Made by a program: the position numbers and the translations under genes. A model generated the notes under the pieces. It was not told where the DNA came from. It was given only the letters and a program-made list of their open reading frames with translations, and did no database searches. Shown one piece after another: positions 1-9,576 of a stretch of 64,000 nt of DNA. Source of the stretch: Candidatus Bathyarchaeota archaeon (GTDB lineage: Archaea > Thermoproteota > Bathyarchaeia > Bathyarchaeales > Bathycorpusculaceae); the NCBI GenBank assembly GCA_963707955.1, contig OY970176.1, positions 224,001-288,000 of the forward strand, in the 5' to 3' direction. Position 1 is the stretch's first letter, and each line of letters opens with the position of its first letter.

Positions 1-49
1 GCCAGTCAACCTGGTCGTTTATTATCCTGGAACGTTTTGCGGCGACACT

Positions 50-3000
50 TTGGACCTGTTCGTTGGCCTTTCTAGGTCGACCGTTTACGACCCAGAATCA
101 TCTGGCTTCTACGAGTGCACGACGCTGGCGCCGAATATCCAGTGGGCGGGCAACACTTACATGCTTGACTGTGGAGACAACTCAACGCTGATTTACGTCT
201 ACGTAAACGGCTCCGAAACCATCGTCTCCCCTAACCCCCAGTGCTTCTCCACGGTTCAGACTGATCTGAGTCCGTTGGGAAGTGGCGGGTGTCTGAACGT
301 GACCGCATTCGTCAACGGCACAAACCGCTTCGAAGCGAAAACCGTGACCGACATCTTCAACTTGACAGAGACCAACGTTTCCGACGTGCCCTCCGCGGGC
401 AGCGGCAACTTCGATTTGAACTATTCCCTCAGCGTCTCCGACGGTAACGAGACAACCTACTATGACACGCAAAACTCCGTTAACGTCACCGCCTCCCTGT
501 TTGACTCTCCAGTCTACAACGCTTCAGCGACAGTCACCACCGCCAAACTCCTAAGCCGCTCAGCCACCAACAGCACCGGATGGGCATCTATACCCTCAGG
601 CTGCAATTACCTCCGCGTACAATCCGCCTGCCTCCTTCAACCCAACATGGCTTCGCCCCTAGCAGACGTTGACCATAGCGGATTTGTTAACCAGCATGAT
701 GAAATACTTGTAATGGAGCATGAGAACTCGACTATTGGCGATTCACTGTATGATTGGCGCTATGATCTCAACGGCGACGGCGCGATAAACCTGACTGACC
801 AGGATATAGTTACTGCAAGCTCAAACTGGGGCCACAGCATTACGTATTTGGTTGCTGGGAATTGCACTGGTAGCTACAATGCTAATTATGATTTCAGTGG
901 TGTGGAAGTTGATTTTAACACGGGCCAGAGGGCGTACTTGGACAGCCTCGGCTTCACAAGCGTTCCCGCCGGCGCGCAGTGGCTTAACATGTCGATTGGA
1001 GGCGTTGTAGAATTCTTTAATGCTCAACCGGCGCAGAACGCTTCCACCGACAACGTCGGCGTTGCCAGCATAGGCTGGCGTCCAGAGATTGTGGGATTGG
1101 ATGTTGTTCAGGCCAAGCTGCCCTCAACGTTCAACGTGACCGTGTCGAAGTCAGCCTCTCAGCCTAATTACGCGGAGGTGAACGCTTCTTTGAACGTTGC
1201 CAACTACTTCTACGTGCTGAAGAGACCTGTGGACATCACTGTTAACCTGAAACCGCTTAACGCCTCCTATCCTATGGGCGAATCGGGGAACATCACTATG
1301 AGCGAATTGGACCAAGTTACTGGACAACCAGTCCCATATTTGCCCTTCAACCTTAGCGTGTCGAGTCCGAATGGCAATGTGAATGACACTTGGAGTGAAG
1401 AGGGAACTTTTGACGGGTCTGGAACGAATGAGACGGTCTGCCCCATGCAGGGAAACTTTATTTACAACGTTAATGTTTCATGGGCAGACTTTGGGGACAA
1501 CGCTGCAGGCGCTTGCAGCAGCCTTTTCGATTTCAGGTGGCCCACGAACATCACATCGGAAGCTGGCAACGTGACAAACGCCTCAGAAGGCGAAAACGAG
1601 ACTCTCTATTTTCTTCTAACCAACGGCATCAACGGTGCGCGGGTGGGAGGGGAGCCTATCTGCTTCGACGTCAACGGCAGCTATTGCTATTGCAATGGCA
1701 CATCCTGGCCCTTTAGTGGCGTCTACTACGGCACAACCGTAGTGATCGGCGCTGTCGAGTTCAACTGGACGGTGCCGCCCTACGGCAGCGGGACGTACGA
1801 TGTGACTGCCATGTTTAACGGTGACACCAACTATTGCCCCTGCCAAACCAGCATGATCGTCAACGCCAGCGCTGTGCCCCTCGGAGTCTTGTTCAGCGTC
1901 ACACCAGACGAGTTTGAAAACGGAACCAACGTGCTGCTGAACGCCACCATCATAGACCCCTCCACAGGCGCGCCCTTCACAAGCCAGAACGTGAACGTCA
2001 ACTTCTACAACGTGGACTCGAACGGCGTCCAGCAGAAACTAGGCACGAACTCCACCGGCAACACTGGCATGGCCTTTTGGAGCCTGAACTACGCGAGCAA
2101 CGGGAACGCTTACGCCTACAAGGCCGATATAAACGCGGACTCCGTGAGCGGTGTTCTCCGTCAAGGCATCGCCAGCAGCCCAATCCAGCTCACCGTGGGC
2201 AACGCAACCGTGCTCCTGCTGAACGTTTCCCGAGGCATCTCTTCCACAAACCACACGATTGAGAGCCAACTGCTGAGCGATGGCACGGGCGTCCCGAACG
2301 AGACCGTGACCATCACCGTTAACGGCCAATCTTTTCAGAACAAGACAGACCCGAACGGCTACTTCAACGTGTCCATCGACCTCGAACCTGAATGCCCCAA
2401 CGGCACTACCGCGTACCAGAACGTTACCTACACGATAACAGCCAGCTTCGCAGGCGATAATCCCTCCAACGCCACCGCCTACGACAACACGCTAGACGGC
2501 TCCAGCTACGCCGAGTGCACTACCACACAGTACTGCTACGAACCCAGCACCAACACCACAGCACTAACTGTAAACCCACAGTCCACGCAGGCGACGACTG
2601 CGACAGAGACGCCTAAGCAGATGCAGCAGGATGCAAAAAGTAACGGATGCCTCAGCGTCTACAGCGAGTGGAGCTGGTGGTACCCCTGGTACCGATTGCA
2701 TTTCAAAATAACCATAAGCGACCCAACCACAATTGATGTTGGCGTTTCGTTTCTTCCAGGCGGGAGTACGCAGTCTAGTAAAGGACTGGGAATCTTCAAC
2801 CAGCTCGACGAAGAATTCGTTAAGTCGTTTGTAATAGATACGGGAACTTTGATGGGGGAATACGCATTGGCAAAAATCGGTTTTTGGTTCGGACAACCAT
2901 GGGTTGTAGCTGGAGCCTTTGTTGCTGAGGTTGCTGAAGATGGTTTTATATTAGGGTATTTTTGGAACAACGGGGGCGAGTTGCTTGCATTCGGAATAGT

Positions 3001-3223
3001 TAATATTATCATGGGCTTACTTGCAACTCAAGGAAATTTCGCGGCGAGCTTCTTGAACCTGTTGACCATGGTGACTACGGCGACGATGGCAGCCTTGCTG
3101 CTCATAACTACCGGTGCAATAGCGTCAGGAGGGTCATATATGTGGAACCCTGTTAACCCGTTTCAGGTTGGGTTGTCTTTTGCTTGTGCTGCTTTGGCTC
3201 TCGGTAGGTGGGCAGGACTGTGA
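50..3223 (+). CDS. Very large secreted/surface glycoprotein, probably 5'-truncated by the window: dockerin-like duplicated Ca-loop, Ig-like repeats, WWYPWYRLH motif, hydrophobic C-terminal domain
   Basis: 1057-aa ORF with no obvious signal peptide, and the frame is open back to the window edge. Very many N-x-S/T sequons. DVDHSGFVNQHD...DLNGDGAINLTD dockerin-type loops at ~660-815. Ig-like 'TITVNG..TD.NGYF..Y.ITASFAGD' repeats. Last ~150 aa contain several hydrophobic helices. Confidence 0.8.
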   Translation: MDLFVGLSRSTVYDPESSGFYECTTLAPNIQWAGNTYMLDCGDNSTLIYVYVNGSETIVSPNPQCFSTVQTDLSPLGSGGCLNVTAFVNGTNRFEAKTVTDIFNLTETNVSDVPSAGSGNFDLNYSLSVSDGNETTYYDTQNSVNVTASLFDSPVYNASATVTTAKLLSRSATNSTGWASIPSGCNYLRVQSACLLQPNMASPLADVDHSGFVNQHDEILVMEHENSTIGDSLYDWRYDLNGDGAINLTDQDIVTASSNWGHSITYLVAGNCTGSYNANYDFSGVEVDFNTGQRAYLDSLGFTSVPAGAQWLNMSIGGVVEFFNAQPAQNASTDNVGVASIGWRPEIVGLDVVQAKLPSTFNVTVSKSASQPNYAEVNASLNVANYFYVLKRPVDITVNLKPLNASYPMGESGNITMSELDQVTGQPVPYLPFNLSVSSPNGNVNDTWSEEGTFDGSGTNETVCPMQGNFIYNVNVSWADFGDNAAGACSSLFDFRWPTNITSEAGNVTNASEGENETLYFLLTNGINGARVGGEPICFDVNGSYCYCNGTSWPFSGVYYGTTVVIGAVEFNWTVPPYGSGTYDVTAMFNGDTNYCPCQTSMIVNASAVPLGVLFSVTPDEFENGTNVLLNATIIDPSTGAPFTSQNVNVNFYNVDSNGVQQKLGTNSTGNTGMAFWSLNYASNGNAYAYKADINADSVSGVLRQGIASSPIQLTVGNATVLLLNVSRGISSTNHTIESQLLSDGTGVPNETVTITVNGQSFQNKTDPNGYFNVSIDLEPECPNGTTAYQNVTYTITASFAGDNPSNATAYDNTLDGSSYAECTTTQYCYEPSTNTTALTVNPQSTQATTATETPKQMQQDAKSNGCLSVYSEWSWWYPWYRLHFKITISDPTTIDVGVSFLPGGSTQSSKGLGIFNQLDEEFVKSFVIDTGTLMGEYALAKIGFWFGQPWVVAGAFVAEVAEDGFILGYFWNNGGELLAFGIVNIIMGLLATQGNFAASFLNLLTMVTTATMAALLLITTGAIASGGSYMWNPVNPFQVGLSFACAALALGRWAGL
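2161..2704 (+). repeat. Direct repeat copy 1 (~544 bp; copy 2 at 4811-5354)
   Basis: tcaaggcatcgccagcagcccaatccagct vs tcaaggcgtcgccagcagcccagtccagct; shared ccacacgattgagagccaactgctgagcga and gccaccgcctacgacaacacgctagacgg. Confidence 0.95.
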
Positions 3224-3227
3224 TAGG

Positions 3228-3680
3228 GTGAGCGAGGCTGAATTGACGCTTGAAGAAAGAAACCATCTGTACACGCTGTGCGGTATGATGCTTCTCGTGG
3301 TGTCTTTTTCATTCTTAGCGTGGTTACTCTTTTTTGAGCAATCCAATTTTACGCGAGGCGGATGGAGCATGTTTATCTGGTTTGGGCTGCCTTACAGCAT
3401 CATCGGACCGACATCCTTTTTCCTAGCTTACGAGGCCTTTTACCCTAGAAGACTCAGAAGATCACACATGTTTCACCTGAAAAGATTTTTCCGCCGTACG
3501 CTCAGTTTGGCAGCCGTAATGGTGTCCTTCCCTGCAACTGTGTCTTTTTCTGAGGTCGCATTTTCCAAAACGTTGGGGAGCGAAGCTTTGTATCCAGGCA
3601 TGGTTTTGTGGGTTTTTGTGTTTTTTGCCGCTGTCCTTCTGTGGCTGAGGCGACAAAATTCGAGAAGTCCTAAATGGTGA
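3228..3680 (+). CDS. Small 4-TM membrane protein, candidate immunity partner
   Basis: GTG 4 nt after the stop of the upstream giant ORF; about four hydrophobic segments. Confidence 0.7.
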   Translation: MSEAELTLEERNHLYTLCGMMLLVVSFSFLAWLLFFEQSNFTRGGWSMFIWFGLPYSIIGPTSFFLAYEAFYPRRLRRSHMFHLKRFFRRTLSLAAVMVSFPATVSFSEVAFSKTLGSEALYPGMVLWVFVFFAAVLLWLRRQNSRSPKW

Positions 3681-3759
3681 AAACGATAGAATCAAACTTT
3701 AGCGTGTGCTAATCTTGTTTCCTTGCCTTTTGGTGCGTGTGATATCTCTCTCTGTCTCT

Positions 3760-4172
3760 CTATCTATGTCTAAGTAGTTGTCTGAGGCCATGCTTCTTTA
3801 ACAGTTGATTGTATCCTTCAAGCTTTGCGAGGACGATCTCTTTAGCAACCTGCAAGCCTTTCCCATTCTTCAGAGCTTTATACTGAGAGATCCGCGTTTT
3901 GACATTGCTGCCATCATCGAAACTTCTTAAGACTGCAACCGGATTACGGTTCTGCGTGAATATGTGAACCGATATGTTCCAGAATCCACCACAAGCAAGC
4001 GCTCCGGAGCTAATCAAGTTTTCATTTTTAACCTGTATCTCTGAAATCGCCTGTTCAAACATGGGATACTTTTCTGTCTTGCCGATTCTATCTTTCACGA
4101 CTGGACATCCTTTTGCATCCAGAGATATGAGCCGTAGCCGTTTAATGCGAGCTTTACGGTTTTGGTCTTCAT
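3760..4172 (-). pseudogene. cas1: cas1 (solo-type) N-terminal fragment, frameshifted and truncated
   Basis: Joined frames read MKTKTVKLALNGYGSYLWMQ/KGCPVVKD..YPMFE..ISSGALACGGFWNISVHIFTQNRNPVAVLRSFDD..TRISQYKAL..VAKEIVLAKLEG, resembling the Cas1 N-terminal beta domain and first helices. The catalytic C-terminal half is absent. Confidence 0.75.
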
Positions 4173-4290
4173 CTTTAGCCTCTCTAATTATAATAAGGCT
4201 GAAATGTGGTTAATACACCTAGATAGAATAATCTTCCAGAAGCCATATCATGCAGAAATCTTAAATCAGCACAGCAACAGAGAACAAACT

Positions 4291-4690
4291 ATGAGTGTGG
4301 ACAATGATTCTAGCAAGCCAACAAAGGAGCGCGCGCGCTAGACTGGGATTAAGAAGAGCGCGTTGTCCTCTCTGTGGAGAAGAATTGCCTACTTACTCCG
4401 ACTATCAACAGCATGTGAAGACGAGGCATTATAATTTTTTATCTTGAATCGAGAAAAGGAACGAAAACCATGATATTGGCTGTTGCGTTAATGGCGGTTC
4501 TTACAACATCGTATGTAACGTATTTTATGAAACAACCATTGAGCCTTCTCAGTTCCTTGTTATTGTTCTCATGATAATTAGCATTGGAGCTGCTTTCTAC
4601 GTTATATGCCGACAACTACTTCTCTTTCAGAAATACAAAGAGACTCTAGACTTACCCAATAATTCTTTAGCTGTGATAAAGGATTCCTAG
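4291..4690 (+). pseudogene. Degraded C2H2 zinc-finger plus transmembrane protein
   Basis: CPLCGEELPTYSDYQQHVKTRH (C-x2-C-x12-H-x4-H) at ~4364-4429, followed by hydrophobic segments broken by stops and frameshifts. Confidence 0.5.
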
Positions 4691-4810
4691 AGAACCACTC
4701 GCTCGGGGCCTGAATTTCATTGACATAACTGGAGTTGCCTTTGATTTCGTGCATTTCTGGCCATCGTTCGTTCCTTCACGGAGGGAAATCGTCCTAAGAA
4801 ACCCTCAAAC

Positions 4811-5457
4811 TCAAGGCGTCGCCAGCAGCCCAGTCCAGCTTACCGTAGCCAAGCCCACCGTGCTCCTGCTCAACGTTTCCCGAGCCAACTCTTCCATAAA
4901 CCACACGATTGAGAGCCAACTGCTGAGCGACGGCACAGGCGTCTCAAACGAGAACGTGGCCATCACCGTTAACGGCGAATCCTTCCAGAACACGACAGAC
5001 CAGAACGGCTACTTCAACCTGTCCCTTGACCTCCAACCAAAATGCCCCAATGGTCAAACCTCGTACCAGAACGTCACCTACACGATAACATCCAGCTTCG
5101 CAGGTGACCACCCCACCAACGCCACCGCCTACGACAACACGCTAGACGGAGAACAGTACGCAGCGTGCACAACCATTCAGTACGGCTACGAACCCAGCAG
5201 CAACACTACGGTACTGACCGTAACCCCACAATCAACATTAACAACGATGCTAACCGAAACGCCTGAAGAGATGCAGAAGCAAGAAGAGCAGAATGGAACT
5301 CTGAAGATTTACAACGAGTAGAGCTAGTGGTATCCATGGTACAGACTGCACTTTGTTGGGAATGGAATGGACAAACTCTGATTATAGTCGGTATTGCGGC
5401 TTTGCGATTTGCCGATATAGGTTATCTTCTAGACTCGCCTTTGAAGGAAGAATGAAA
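4811..5457 (+). pseudogene. Orphan C-terminal cassette homologous to 2161-2704 of the giant surface protein, with a different degraded tip
   Basis: Gap-free colinear copy at offset 2650 nt. It reads E*S*WYPWYRLHF where the full gene has EWSWWYPWYRLHF, and it lacks the N-terminal domains. Confidence 0.85.
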
Positions 5458-5495
5458 GAGTGGCTCGGAAGCGCTCTCTTCTCTTATTCCACAAA

Positions 5496-6938
5496 TCAAG
5501 ATGTGCCTATTTCTTTCTTGAATACTTCCCCTAAGTCTTTTCCCCAGTTATCTAGGGCTTTGAGCTTTCCAAGGAAAAACCTGAGCACTGGCGGTTCGGA
5601 CACGAACTTCAAACCTTTCACTAGGTCTCTGTGCGTGTAAAGCCATTTTATCCTGTCAACTGCGTAGTCGATGTGCGACACCGTGTAGACTCTTCTGGGC
5701 AATGCGATTCTTGTTAGTTCTATGTCGGCAAAGACTTCTTTTCCTTCCTTGTTCCTGTCCATTGAAATTGTGCCTCTTTCCATGCTTCTTATTCCTGAGG
5801 CAATGTAAAGTCCGGCTGCGAGTGCTCCTGCTGGATATTGCGACTGAGGTATGTTTGGCAGAAACTTCATCGCGTCGAGATGGCATGCCAATCCGCCTGG
5901 CGGCGTGACTACTGGGATTCCAGCCTTGACAAGCTTGTTGACGAAGTATTTGATCTGTTCGACTGCGCAGCCTGCGACGTCTGGGTCTACCATTTCCCTC
6001 ATTCCGACGGCCATTGCGCCGACTTCTCTCATCGACATGCCGCCGTACGTGAAGAACCCTTCGTACACTGGGAGCCACGGTTGTATCTGCTCGAACAGTT
6101 TCTGATTGTTGGTTGCTATGCAGCCGCCTCTGACGCAGGTGTTTTTTCTTCCGCTCATATAATAAATGTCTGCGATGCTGCACATCTCTTTGACTATTTC
6201 CGCGACTGTCTTGTTCTCGTATGCTTTCTCTCGCTGTCTTATGAGGTAGGCGTTTTCACAGATCAGACTTCCGTCTATGACGAGAAGCAAGTCGTTCTCG
6301 GTGCAGATCTGTTTGATCTCCTTCAGGTTCTTCATCGAGAACGGTTGTCCACCGATCAGGTTGGTCGTTGCTTCCATTCGCACAAAGCCAATCTTGTCCT
6401 TGCCGTATTTCTTGATGACGTTCCTGAGCTTCTGCGGGTCCATACATCCTTTGAAGAGGTTTGTGCTCTCGGTTTTCAACGCATCATCATAATAGATCTC
6501 TAGAACCTGCATGCCTTGGAGCTCAATGTGAGCTTTCGTGGTCGTGAAGTGGTAGTTCGTGGGGATAACGCCGTCCGGTTTGGCGAAAACCTTTGCCAGG
6601 AGATGTTCCGCCGCTCTGCCTTGATGCACGTTCATCACGTACTTGTATCCAAGGACGTCTTCAACTGCTTTGGCAAACTCATAGAAAGTCATGCTGCCAG
6701 CGTAAGCATCATCAACTCTCATCATGCCAGCGAACTGGTTGTCGCTCATAGCGTTTACGCCGCTGTCCGTGAGCATGTCCAGAAATATGTCCTTAGTTTT
6801 AAGCAGGAACGTGTTGTAACCGGCCTCTTCGATGGCTCTGAGCCGTTGGTCAACAGGAACTAACTGGACTTTTTGCACCATTCTGGCCTTGTGCATCTCA
6901 ATCGGAATTTCCTCGCCTGAAGAAAGTCTGATAGACAT
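5496..6938 (-). CDS. tpl: Tyrosine phenol-lyase / tryptophanase family PLP beta-eliminating lyase with TPL-type residues
   Basis: LTDSG, DDAYAGS, HQGRAAE, PLP-Lys motif SGRKN; FTTT, RSMERG and LRFF match TPL rather than TnaA. Confidence 0.8.
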   Translation of the reverse strand: MSIRLSSGEEIPIEMHKARMVQKVQLVPVDQRLRAIEEAGYNTFLLKTKDIFLDMLTDSGVNAMSDNQFAGMMRVDDAYAGSMTFYEFAKAVEDVLGYKYVMNVHQGRAAEHLLAKVFAKPDGVIPTNYHFTTTKAHIELQGMQVLEIYYDDALKTESTNLFKGCMDPQKLRNVIKKYGKDKIGFVRMEATTNLIGGQPFSMKNLKEIKQICTENDLLLVIDGSLICENAYLIRQREKAYENKTVAEIVKEMCSIADIYYMSGRKNTCVRGGCIATNNQKLFEQIQPWLPVYEGFFTYGGMSMREVGAMAVGMREMVDPDVAGCAVEQIKYFVNKLVKAGIPVVTPPGGLACHLDAMKFLPNIPQSQYPAGALAAGLYIASGIRSMERGTISMDRNKEGKEVFADIELTRIALPRRVYTVSHIDYAVDRIKWLYTHRDLVKGLKFVSEPPVLRFFLGKLKALDNWGKDLGEVFKKEIGTS

Positions 6939-7090
6939 AATGGAAACCTCAAGAGTTTGCTCTTATCACGTTTACGTTTTTATAATCCTTTCGGTCTAAC
7001 ATTCTTGTTCGATCATCGTCAATTTTCTCACCAAAAGCTATATGTGAAAGGTTAAGACTGTGAGGATTTTCAACAAGTCTGAGGAGAAGT

Positions 7091-8971
7091 TTGTTGCCTG
7101 ATTCGAAAGTCTTGCTGCAGGACAAGCCGGGAAAACGGGTGCTCCTGCTAGGCAATGAGGCCATTGCCCGAGGGATTCTCGAGGCAGGGATAGGTGTTGT
7201 GACCACATACCCCGGTACACCCGCGTCTGAGATAGGCGACTCCGTGTCGGAAATCGCTTCTGAAGCCGGTGTGTACATGGAGTACTCCGTCAACGAAATG
7301 GTTGCGGTCGAGGTCGGTGCCGGAGCTGCAAGCTGTGGAGTGAGAGCTCTCGCAGCAATGAAGCATGTTGGGCTCAACGTGGCCGCCGACATGGTCATGA
7401 CGTTGGCTTATACCGGTGTAAGAGCAGGCTACGTCATCGTCACGGCAGACGACCCTGAGTGTTACAGCTCCCAGAATGAGCAGGACAACCGCTTCTACGC
7501 GCTGCTTTCAAACCTGCCGTGCTTGGAGCCTTCCGACCCTCAAGAAGCGAAGGACATGACTGTCTCAGCCATCGAGATATCCGAAAAACTCGAGTTGCCA
7601 GTGCTCCTGAGAACCACAACGCGCGTGAGCCACACTCGCGGACCAGTCGAGTACAAAAGCATCGTGAAACCAAACCTACAGGGCAATTTCATCAGAGACG
7701 TGCAGCGTTTGGTGATGGTGCCAGCGTTTTCGAGGCCGAAGCACGAAGTGCTCTTGAGACAGGCCGCAAAGGCAAAGGAAATCAGTGATGCATCTCCCTA
7801 CAACAGAGTTGTCAAGAAAGGCAAAGAATTCGGCATTATATCCTCAGGCGCGGCTTACAACTACGCGGTTGAAGCAGCAAACCTGCTGAGCCTGGACGCG
7901 GGCATTCTGAAACTCGGGATGACGCATCCGCTTCCAGAAAAAATGATCGGACGATTCTTGAAAGCCTTCGACAAAATCGTCATCGTCGAAGAGCTTGAAC
8001 CATACTTGGAAATGCAGGTCAAAGCAATAGCTAAGGATCACGCGCCAATCGTCGAAATATTCGGAAAAATGGTCAAGCAATTCTTTCCGAATGAAGGAGA
8101 GCTTTCAACTCGCATAGTCGCAGCAGGTTTGGCTAAGATAACGGGCAGAAAGCTGCCGATAGATTTCCAAAGGATCAGTGAAAAATATGCTGAAGCCACC
8201 AGAGACTTGCCTTCCAGACCGCCAATACTCTGCGCTGGCTGTCCGCACAGAGCATCCTTCTACGTGTTGAGAAGAGTTGGAGGAGACAAGGCACTCTACT
8301 CAACCGACATAGGTTGCTACGCTTTGGGAACCGCGCCGCCGTTGAACGTTGGAGACATCATGACGTGCATGGGTGCAAGCATAGGCACTGCTCAAGGAAT
8401 GAGCAAAGCGACAGGCAGAGAAACCATTGCGATCATCGGAGACTCGACGTTTTTCCACGCGGGAATTCCTGGCCTGGTGAACGCTGTTTATAACAAGAGC
8501 AAGGTCCTCACAGTGGTTCTGGACAATCTTGCAACAGCGATGACCGGGCATCAGCCGCATCCTGGGACAGGCATGACTGGAATGCACGCTTCAACGGAGA
8601 GAATTCTCATTGAAAACGTCGCTGAAGGATGTGGCGTCAAATACGTCAAGGTGGTGGACCCGTTCAAAACAAAAGAAGCTGCTGCAGTGTTGAGAGAGGC
8701 CCTGCAACAACCTGGGCCTTCAGTTGTCGTTTTCCGGGCTCCCTGCACTTTGATGGCCGTCAAGGAGAAGAGGCAGAGAGGAATCAAAGTCGAGCCGACC
8801 AGAATCACTGATAAATGCACGAACTGCATGGCCTGCATCAAACTTCTAGGCTGTCCAGCCATTGTCGTTGAAGAGGGAAAGGTGAAAATCGACGAAGACT
8901 CTTGCACTGCCTGTGGACTTTGCATTTCGGTTTGTCCCTACGGCGCCATAGAAGGAAGCTGTGCAGAATGA
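7091..8971 (+). CDS. iorA: Indolepyruvate:ferredoxin oxidoreductase alpha subunit
   Basis: GNEAIARG, YPGTP, MKHVGLNVAAD, CAGCPHR, DIGCY, GDSTFFH, C-terminal 2x[4Fe-4S]. Confidence 0.95.
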   Translation: MLPDSKVLLQDKPGKRVLLLGNEAIARGILEAGIGVVTTYPGTPASEIGDSVSEIASEAGVYMEYSVNEMVAVEVGAGAASCGVRALAAMKHVGLNVAADMVMTLAYTGVRAGYVIVTADDPECYSSQNEQDNRFYALLSNLPCLEPSDPQEAKDMTVSAIEISEKLELPVLLRTTTRVSHTRGPVEYKSIVKPNLQGNFIRDVQRLVMVPAFSRPKHEVLLRQAAKAKEISDASPYNRVVKKGKEFGIISSGAAYNYAVEAANLLSLDAGILKLGMTHPLPEKMIGRFLKAFDKIVIVEELEPYLEMQVKAIAKDHAPIVEIFGKMVKQFFPNEGELSTRIVAAGLAKITGRKLPIDFQRISEKYAEATRDLPSRPPILCAGCPHRASFYVLRRVGGDKALYSTDIGCYALGTAPPLNVGDIMTCMGASIGTAQGMSKATGRETIAIIGDSTFFHAGIPGLVNAVYNKSKVLTVVLDNLATAMTGHQPHPGTGMTGMHASTERILIENVAEGCGVKYVKVVDPFKTKEAAAVLREALQQPGPSVVVFRAPCTLMAVKEKRQRGIKVEPTRITDKCTNCMACIKLLGCPAIVVEEGKVKIDEDSCTACGLCISVCPYGAIEGSCAE

Positions 8972-9576
8972 AGGAGTTCAACGTCGTTCTGGCCGGCGTT
9001 GGCGGGCAAGGCACGCTCTTGGCGGCTGAGGCCATAGGCGTGGCCGCCGTTAAGGATGAACTGAACGTCAGGGTGAGCGAGATCCATGGTATGGCCCAAC
9101 GGGGCGGAGCAGTCGTTTCAACAGTGAGAATAGGCGAAGACGCTCTGTCTTCAACAGTGTTGGATGGACAAGCAGACGTGCTTTTGGGATTTGAGCCCTT
9201 TGAAACGCTTCGGAACCTGAAGTACGCTTCGGAAAAGACGTTGGTCATGATGAGCACGGAAAGGATTCCGCCAACGGAATTAGCCGCGAAGAACGTGAAA
9301 TATCCAAGCATAGAAAAACTCGTTGAGAAGGTTCAAATCTTCACTTGCCACGTACTTCTCGTTGATGCGCCACGGTTAGCTAAGAAAGCTGGAAGCAGTC
9401 TTGCACAGAATGTTGTGCTGCTCGGGGCTTTGGCCGGCACTGGGGTGTTGCCTGTGAAGACTGAAAGCCTGAAGGAAGCCGTCCGGGAGCTTGTTCCAGC
9501 AAAACACTTGGAGATGAACCTCAGAGCCTTCGAGCTGGGCCTGGAAAGCGTGACGGTGGAAAAGAAGAAGACTTAG
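8968..9576 (+). CDS. iorB: Indolepyruvate:ferredoxin oxidoreductase beta subunit
   Basis: GVGGQG, EIHGMAQRGGAV; ATGA overlap with iorA. Confidence 0.93.
   Translation: MKEFNVVLAGVGGQGTLLAAEAIGVAAVKDELNVRVSEIHGMAQRGGAVVSTVRIGEDALSSTVLDGQADVLLGFEPFETLRNLKYASEKTLVMMSTERIPPTELAAKNVKYPSIEKLVEKVQIFTCHVLLVDAPRLAKKAGSSLAQNVVLLGALAGTGVLPVKTESLKEAVRELVPAKHLEMNLRAFELGLESVTVEKKKT

Follow-up and report, generated by a model that had tools for sequence, protein, structure and literature searches.

A candidate polymorphic effector/immunity-type cassette system with membrane tips in Bathyarchaeia

Introduction

At one end of a 64,000-nucleotide (nt) stretch of DNA from a Candidatus Bathyarchaeota archaeon (GenBank assembly GCA_963707955.1, contig OY970176.1), which is referred to here as the window, a gene for a giant surface protein ends in a hydrophobic tip and is followed at once by a gene for a small membrane protein, while an orphan copy of the segment that precedes the tip lies further downstream. 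This locus raises the question of whether the tip and its neighbor constitute an exchangeable cassette, as in the polymorphic toxin systems of bacteria, or whether the tip is no more than the anchor of a surface protein. An earlier note, made from the sequence alone, had likened the layout to that of the bacterial CdiA, Rhs and MafB loci. All elements of that initial observation are present in the window, and the conserved stalk, the junction, the variable tip, the adjacent partner gene and the orphan copies on which the likeness was based were all found, with a toxin function suggested by analogy.

The analysis described here supports the architecture of the system and its mode of evolution. 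On balance, we lean toward a Bathyarchaeia-specific polymorphic cassette system of the effector/immunity type, in which a membrane-acting effector would be matched by an intramembrane immunity protein. A toxic tip (pore-forming or other), immunity conferred by the partner and contact-dependent delivery are inferred by analogy with known systems. Three refuting outcomes had been set beforehand, namely a single C-terminus common to all homologs, a partner gene not specific to its tip and orphan modules that do not recur. All three were examined, and none came true.

Recurrence of the family

Searches with the junction pattern and tblastn recovered 64 metagenome loci and 4 loci in GTDB genomes, and all four of the genome loci are titled Bathyarchaeia or Bathyarchaeota metagenome-assembled genomes (MAGs). 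The family is visible only by such motif scans; a word-index protein search with the window tip returned only 5 proteins. A profile of 57 junction-plus-tip sequences, run against 1.84 billion representatives as the earlier note had proposed for the junction, confirmed that the family recurs, with 233 proteins at E≤0.001 and 175 at E≤1e-10. Among the 150 matches listed, the module ends within about 40 residues of the C-terminus, the exception being one protein of 673 amino acids (aa; P0035). Most of these 150 are 170–460 aa long (orphans as called by gene finders), and about 20 are longer than 1,400 aa.

The collected loci contain 98 occurrences of the motif, 80 of them non-redundant. The family consensus of the junction is KTPEQMQxEAEQxGWLxxWHEFSWWYPWYRLH, in which P34 and W35 are invariant and W31, W32, Y33 and R37 are found in at least 90% of 57–59 sequences. 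All nine complete main genes (that is, full-length surface-protein genes) start with a hydrophobic, signal- or anchor-like segment, and the stalks are 1,240–1,950 aa long with sub-threshold Ig-like matches. Modules occur in tandem, two or three together, at 25 loci, and the stalk fragment of the next module usually starts at, or a few nucleotides from, the end of the preceding partner gene. These arrays, among them a second locus of the source genome described below, bear out the expectation that orphan modules recur.

Within the class, 7 of 401 sampled genomes have a match: the source genome, 5 others among 103 genomes of its family and 1 among 11 of a second family in the order. No match is present in the only other species of the same genus, whose genome is 89% complete. 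This patchy count is an undercount, because repeats often remain unassembled in MAGs.

Diversity and structure of the tips

For the comparison of tips and partners, 74 complete modules of the 98 were kept, giving 57 unique tips; modules were left out when the tip was short, cut or longer than 300 aa, or when the partner was shorter than 100 aa, cut or missing. The 57 tips fall into 8 clusters and the partners into 13. Intact tips are 164–232 aa long. When the junction and the beta part are removed, the three largest tip clusters align with one another at hhalign probabilities of only 5%, 27% and 7%. Thus, the homologs do not have a single conserved C-terminus in common.

Two tip families modelled with AF2 (pLDDT 83.3 and 81.9) have in common a layout of a helix, a 4-strand sheet and a bundle of 6–7 helices. 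In the model of the window tip, two to three of the six helices are strongly hydrophobic; the sequence has two segments above a Kyte-Doolittle value of 1.6, plus amphipathic helices with acidic residues. A sequence search of the PDB with the tip gave 0 matches. A colicin-like fold was considered for the tip and is unsupported, as colicin N appeared only at a Foldseek E of 1 with a TM score of 0.22, which is noise. A wide VIA-align search with the first tip model returned only generic designed helical bundles (best Z 8.8), and a search of the ESM Atlas gave a best score of 0.86, with a PT-TG cluster at rank 27 (0.82); these Atlas matches are leads only.

One metagenome module (L062:10034 onward) has a 406-aa open frame with 8 hydrophobic segments after the motif, and looks as if tip and partner were fused in one frame.

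Partner genes and their covariation with the tips

Two lines of evidence link each tip to the gene behind it. First, the two are adjacent. The count covered 62 non-redundant intact tips followed by 450 nt or more of sequence, and it required an open reading frame (ORF) of at least 100 aa with at least three transmembrane (TM) segments; 57 of the tips are followed by an ORF of 119–256 aa with at least three hydrophobic segments, starting between −41 and +24 nt from the stop codon. The five misses comprise the window's own partner, which the crude Kyte-Doolittle rule undercounts, and four ORFs of 54–90 aa. The partner families have 3–7 TM segments. Second, partners change with their tips. Homologous partners were found in 139 of 140 module pairs whose tips are at least 40% alike, compared to 17 of 1,086 pairs whose tips are less than 20% alike, and tip similarity correlates with partner similarity (Spearman 0.74). 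Collectively, these counts indicate that the downstream gene is tip-specific, as had been proposed.

In the window, the partner gene starts with GTG 4 nt after the main-gene stop codon and encodes 150 aa with four hydrophobic segments (by eye), which agrees with the earlier description of a 4-TM gene at this spacing. It is homologous to a 4-TM partner family at other loci and falls in partner cluster 0, whose other members go with cluster-0 tips. By the positive-inside rule, applied by eye, both ends and a basic loop (PRRLRRSHMFHLKRFFRR) would be cytoplasmic, and the two outside loops would have only 10–12 residues. With outside loops as short as these, any contact with the tip must occur within the membrane. 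Co-folding of the window tip with its partner gave a score of 0.00, which is evidence neither for nor against an interaction.

Maintenance and exchange of orphan cassettes

Modules with less than 400 aa of open stalk frame were classed as orphans, of which 46 are non-redundant. Their upstream frames are 5′-truncated copies of the last stalk domain or domains, and only 1 of the 46 has a signal-like start, versus nine of nine complete main genes. The tips are intact in 38 of the 46 (38 of 43 scorable), with 5 short and 3 cut by contig ends. The ratio of nonsynonymous to synonymous substitution rates (dN/dS) was estimated with NG86 for pairs that are 50–97% identical with dS<3, partner pairs being admitted from 45% identity. 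It is 0.08–0.19 in all 17 orphan–orphan tip pairs, 0.09 and 0.12 in the two main–main pairs, 0.09–0.29 in 14 orphan–main pairs and 0.11–0.18 in all four orphan partner pairs. Judged by these substitution ratios, the orphan cassettes are not junk and are kept intact under purifying selection.

Cassettes also appear to move. Each large tip cluster has some members that terminate full-length genes and others in the orphan position. Comparison of three proteins with the window protein shows stalk and tip similarity to be uncoupled between genomes at the level of sequence: P0004 is 74.5% alike in the stalk end and 67% in the tip (same type), P0006 73% in the stalk end and only 18% in the tip (different type), and P0005 36.5% in the stalk end and 65% in the tip (same type).

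The locus in the window

The source genome is a single 2.35 Mb contig (C1), of which the window covers C1:224001-288000. The main-gene ORF extends past the 5′ end of the window (Table 1); the complete gene encodes 1,594 aa (L006:4439-9223) and starts 1,562 nt upstream of it. At its N-terminus, the protein has a basic stretch followed by a hydrophobic segment of about 22 residues, which could be an export signal or an anchor. The stalk is long and rich in N-glycosylation sequons. An Ig-like Big_3_5 match (31.2 bits versus a curated Pfam cut-off of 35.5) and a Dockerin_1 match (18.1 versus 22.9) are the only ones found by Pfam and NCBIfam on the main protein, and both are in the stalk. The earlier label of an Ig-like/dockerin surface protein is right as to the giant protein, but its domain names correspond to sub-cut-off matches only. 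The C-terminal part reads ...SVYSEWSWWYPWYRLHF and continues for 173 residues; the junction EWSWWYPWYRLHF lies at 2666-2704, and 173 further residues follow until the stop codon at 3221-3223. A hydrophobic tip of about 170 aa had been noted at this end, and one of 176 aa is present. GC content is about 57% in the end of the stalk, about 47% in tip and partner, and about 40–43% in the spacer that follows.

Two cohesin-domain matches above the Pfam cut-off are present elsewhere in the genome, at C1:2213510-2213818 (+) and C1:475691-476032 (−), in open frames of 546 and 996 aa, and are possible docking partners for the dockerin-like segment of the stalk.

Table 1. Features of the cassette locus, numbered from the first letter of the window
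Feature	Position	Strand	Basis
Main gene, 3′ 1,073 codons	2..3223	+	ORF and full gene from genome
Stalk-end segment, copied in orphan; 80-84% nt identity with three other genome copies	2161..2703	+	Repeat search, blastn
Conserved pre-tip junction TETPKQMQQDAKSNGCLSVYSEWSWWYPWYRLHF	2603..2704	+	Family consensus; model: helix and first two strands of 4-stranded sheet
Tip, 176 aa after WWYPWY, tip cluster 0	2693..3223	+	Clustering; predicted two more beta strands and six-helix bundle
Partner gene, 150 aa, GTG start, partner cluster 0	3228..3680	+	ORF, homology to other loci
C-terminal relic of cluster-2 tip (ARGLNFIDITGVAFDFVHF)	4680..4757	+	74% identity over 19 aa, E 7e-7
Orphan stalk-end fragment and junction, two TGG to TAG stops	4811..5354	+	Repeat search, blastn, translation
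Decayed start of cluster-1 tip, two other frames	5351..5505	+	Protein match, 55% over 31 aa, E 2e-9

The orphan stalk fragment at 4811-5353 is a copy of 2161-2703 (543 nt). Two repeat blocks, 4811-5110 against 2161-2460 (87% over 300 nt) and 5157-5353 against 2507-2703 (71% over 197 nt), have the same spacing of 2650, and the repeat is therefore gapless, as had been observed. By blastn, the orphan is 81% identical to the main gene over 545 nt (E 1.5e-146), a similarity that is not due to chance, and this similarity stops directly after the junction motif. The earlier note had the orphan diverging at this point into a different, frameshifted tip. That much is correct, as its match to the first ~55 residues of a cluster-1 tip runs in two shifted frames, but this tip is a short relic of about 50 codons, cut off against a convergent gene that ends at 5496, with no partner gene behind it. 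A second relic, matching the end of several cluster-2 tips, lies in frame just upstream of the stalk fragment.

The notion of this orphan as a usable cassette does not survive. The fragment has neither a start codon nor a signal, and its in-frame translation reads ...IYNE*S*WYPWYRLHFVGNGMDKL*, where TAG stands in place of two motif Trp codons (TGG to TAG, at 5319-5321 and 5325-5327). Logan contigs from three DNA runs (X1, X2 and X3) cover the TAG stretch with 0 differences, which is not independent support because the runs share one study and possibly the source sample. Translation of TAG as an amino acid was considered and was rejected, without a test of the genetic code, because both TAGs replace near-invariant (at least 90%) Trp codons and are followed by a tip with a frameshift and a truncation. 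The window orphan is thus a dead relic and no usable spare, and the expressed copy, with its cluster-0 tip and partner, is intact.

No joint that would link the main junction to the orphan junction was found in Logan contigs of 4 DNA runs; this is uninformative about switching, because such contigs drop rare variants. In one run (X3), a loose end at 5345 continues into letters that match the start of the tip of the orphan at the second locus (translation by eye) and is therefore cross-mapping of that paralog.

Related copies in the same genome

A search of the source genome gave four more matches. A second locus, mapped by its ORFs at 2.116–2.131 Mb, has the same layout as the window locus. 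Its main gene (C1:2119021-2123938; L007:3021-7938) encodes a 1,564-aa paralog with a variant junction and a tip of another family. By blastn, it matches the window gene at 83% nt identity along 4,208 nt, and the two are unrelated past this point. A multi-TM ORF comes next. A third element at this locus is a 5′-truncated copy with an open frame of 522 aa, WSWWYPWYRVHY and an intact tip of a third family. It is followed by a 256-aa multi-TM ORF (7 hydrophobic segments by the crude rule) and by a further decayed fragment. The similarity of three genome copies to the window gene breaks off, by blastn, no more than ~15 nt past the motif. The two loci have no neighboring genes in common.

Compared to its closest relative, the main tip of the second locus has a shift of reading frame between 2123514 and 2123543, which reflects either true pseudogenization or a fault in the assembly; the corresponding partner gene is intact. 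A multi-TM ORF of 229 aa that stands alone at C1:2298644-2299330 (−), with no tip near it, has 32% identity to the 7-TM partners that go with cluster-1 tips and, on this similarity, is a candidate immunity-only gene.

Other features near the locus

The low-GC spacer that separates the partner gene from the orphan contains a 111-aa ORF at 3760-4095 (−) that matches Cas1 (PF01867, E 1.3e-10, 41.4 bits, above the cut-off) over profile positions 32–120 of 283. This ORF adjoins a 50-aa ORF at 4295-4444 that resembles a C2H2 zinc finger, with a match below cut-offs, and the two may be a mobile-element relic. A 480-aa ORF at 5496-6938 (−) converges on the orphan and is followed, at 7091-9576 (+), by ORFs of 626 and 224 aa; by eye, without a family search, these three resemble a beta-eliminating lyase (tryptophanase-like) and subunits of an indolepyruvate:ferredoxin oxidoreductase. 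Neither Rfam matches at E≤0.1 in window positions 1-8000 nor tRNAs at the two loci of this genome were found.

Comparison with known systems

Several known systems share parts of this architecture. The CdiA-CT/CdiI system of the Escherichia coli EC93 type has the same long exported stalk, a short junction before the variable C-terminus (VENN, versus WWYPWYRLH here), a cognate small gene immediately downstream, and orphans that keep a piece of the stalk without a start or signal. However, there is no relation in sequence or fold, no CdiB-like transporter is present here, and archaea have no outer membrane. Furthermore, CdiA-CTs are mostly soluble enzymes, whereas every tip family here is helical and hydrophobic. 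In the EC93 type, a membrane-acting CT is paired with a 2-TM CdiI, whereas the partners here have 3–7 TM segments. Imm-CdiI appears in the survey by Zhang et al. (2012, PMC3482391) among the immunity proteins with two TM segments.

The Rhs, WapA and MafB systems resemble the present family in that a new C-terminus with its immunity gene replaces the old one, which remains downstream as an orphan, and in that the phylogenies of stalk and tip are uncoupled. MafB and WapA are exported by Sec alone, and Sec-only systems are known in bacteria. Unlike them, this family is archaeal, has no YD/Rhs repeats, DPxGL motif or known pretoxin domain by Pfam, and shows no detectable similarity to bacterial polymorphic toxins. 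Pore-forming colicins (A, E1, Ia and N) have a helical bundle of ~180–200 aa with a hydrophobic hairpin, which is recognized within the membrane by an immunity protein of 3–4 TM segments. They offer an analogy in mode of action. No Pfam colicin match was found, and in the present family a beta sheet comes before the tip, which is joined covalently to a surface stalk. In Proteus mirabilis, IdsD is a polymorphic membrane-associated protein that is recognized by IdsE, its cognate polytopic membrane partner; that system differs from the present one in the type VI delivery of IdsD and in having no stalk, no orphan arrays and no sequence relation.

The nearest, and only, archaea-native analogue found in print is VARTIG of the Thermococcales, a large archaeal Ig-domain protein with a hypervariable C-terminus and small, mostly transmembrane, downstream genes. 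In the part of that account considered here, its organization is likened to polymorphic toxin systems and its function is given as unknown, while no counterpart outside the Thermococcales is reported and Bathyarchaeia go unmentioned (Makarova et al. 2021, PMC8416519). The variable part of VARTIG, as described there, is an Ig domain with a DNNxxxGG end, whereas the present family has a predicted helical hydrophobic domain after WWYPWY; the two are set apart by description, without a homology test against arCOG07710. No C-terminal motif of the DNNxxxGG type was seen in the 30 of 59 tip sequences inspected by eye, no pattern search having been made. An earlier survey states that most lineages of archaea generally lack polymorphic toxin systems and that the few archaeal examples branch inside bacterial families; it also describes one two-helix pore-forming toxin domain and two-TM immunity proteins (Zhang et al. 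2012, PMC3482391). The earlier note did not recognize the family as described, and the literature searched, which did not extend to the 2019 mBio survey (Makarova et al.) or the VARTIG supplementary tables, held no account of it either. Taken at the level of architecture, the evidence supports an archaea-native variant of the polymorphic toxin/immunity design with uncharacterized membrane tips and partners.

Interpretation

In the effector/immunity mechanism that we propose, homologous recombination within the stalk end or the junction would bring new cassettes of tip and partner into the expressed gene, and the old cassette would be displaced downstream as a silent but maintained copy, as in the C-terminal displacement of Rhs and CdiA. 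The tip would act as a membrane-inserting, possibly pore-forming, effector on the membranes of neighboring archaea, and its delivery would need membrane contact, fusion or vesicles. The partner would neutralize its cognate tip inside the membrane and thereby guard the producer during export and kin from each other.

Several points weigh against this interpretation. First, the tips share the weak motifs D.G..LP and WN. Because of these motifs and the same AF2 layout in both modelled families, a very old common origin is likely, and the models leave room for the view that all tips may be one diverged domain rather than unrelated toxins. Second, known families lend no help: no credible Pfam match was found in the 57 tips and no NCBIfam match for the window tip, a Foldseek search of the PDB with two tip models gave nothing at E≤0.001, and the partners scanned belong to no known immunity or other family in Pfam or NCBIfam. 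Third, the surroundings of the two loci in this genome have no conserved genes for secretion or delivery. Fourth, Sec export would probably leave the hydrophobic helices of the tips (Kyte-Doolittle of at least 1.6 over 19 aa) in the producer's own membrane. Such retention favors an anchor, as transfer to another cell is then hard to picture, and a Trp-rich junction is also expected at a membrane interface. Finally, the module pairs behind the covariation and the dN/dS values are not phylogenetically independent, and contigs of sample series were de-replicated only when identical. Many dS values exceed 2 and are saturated; pairs with dS<1.3 give dN/dS of 0.10–0.19.

The main rival, a polymorphic membrane anchor, draws on several of these points. 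It takes the tip to be the protein's own multi-helix C-terminal anchor and the partner to be a cognate intramembrane subunit (a stabilizer, insertion helper or signalling partner), with the cassette arrays as by-products of frequent recombination among paralogous surface-protein genes, in the absence of antagonism. The placement of hydrophobic helices after a Sec-type signal and a long exported stalk is what an anchor would show, and the aromatic-rich junction would suit the membrane interface. With 176 aa and six predicted helices, however, the tip is unlike single-TM anchors, and NCBIfam found no archaeal C-terminal sorting-signal family (PGF-CTERM and relatives) on the main protein or the tip. 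A partner with only short extramembrane loops and the lack of delivery genes near the two loci are likewise at home with an anchor, as is the one tip architecture common to two modelled families; what an anchor gives no reason for is the existence of at least eight tip families that can hardly be aligned and that each have a separate partner family. Nor does it give a reason for signal-less spare tips and partners to be under purifying selection, and it leaves unexplained both the different tips on near-identical stalks and the partner-like gene without a tip. We consider an anchor unlikely, though it is to be taken seriously.

A second rival is non-lethal identity or kin recognition, in which the tip and partner of touching cells or vesicles would bind only if cognate and so distinguish self from non-self without killing. 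The evidence of architecture and covariation applies equally to it, both components are membrane-embedded like IdsD and IdsE, and by sequence it is inseparable from the toxin interpretation. Its standing is distinctly poorer than that of the anchor, since arrays of spare partners fit the collecting of immunities better than the holding of one identity, and Pfam and NCBIfam found no signalling domains in tip or partner. A third rival, in which the surface protein is a receptor for viruses or predators and varies so as to evade them, with silent cassettes for antigenic or phase variation, is very improbable: silent-cassette layouts also serve surface variation and the distribution is patchy, but variation is concentrated in the hydrophobic end, which is membrane-proximal and has a membrane partner, and the exposed stalk is conserved between copies.

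Significance

In sediments, Bathyarchaeia rank with the most abundant archaea, and next to nothing is known of their interactions with one another. The family described here would represent a second, independent archaeal case after VARTIG, with a much cleaner cassette logic, and its precise junction motif makes every member findable. The tip families, at least eight in number, and the 13 partner clusters are candidates for membrane-active effector/immunity pairs, and the loci offer a natural system for recombinational cassette exchange in uncultured archaea.

A more specific proposal is made only tentatively, as falling a little short of an even chance: that this is a bathyarchaeal polymorphic toxin system, evolved independently of bacteria, in which a giant, glycosylated filament at the surface displays a membrane-inserting (pore-forming) domain of a new class. 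If this is true, the tip domain would kill or mark neighboring archaea that lack the cognate polytopic immunity protein, and the silent arrays would be an exchangeable arsenal together with an immunity collection. The system would then be the first native weapon of archaea against archaea, acting by contact (or vesicles), to be described from one of the most abundant sediment lineages, and, if the tips form pores, they would represent a new fold class for that activity.

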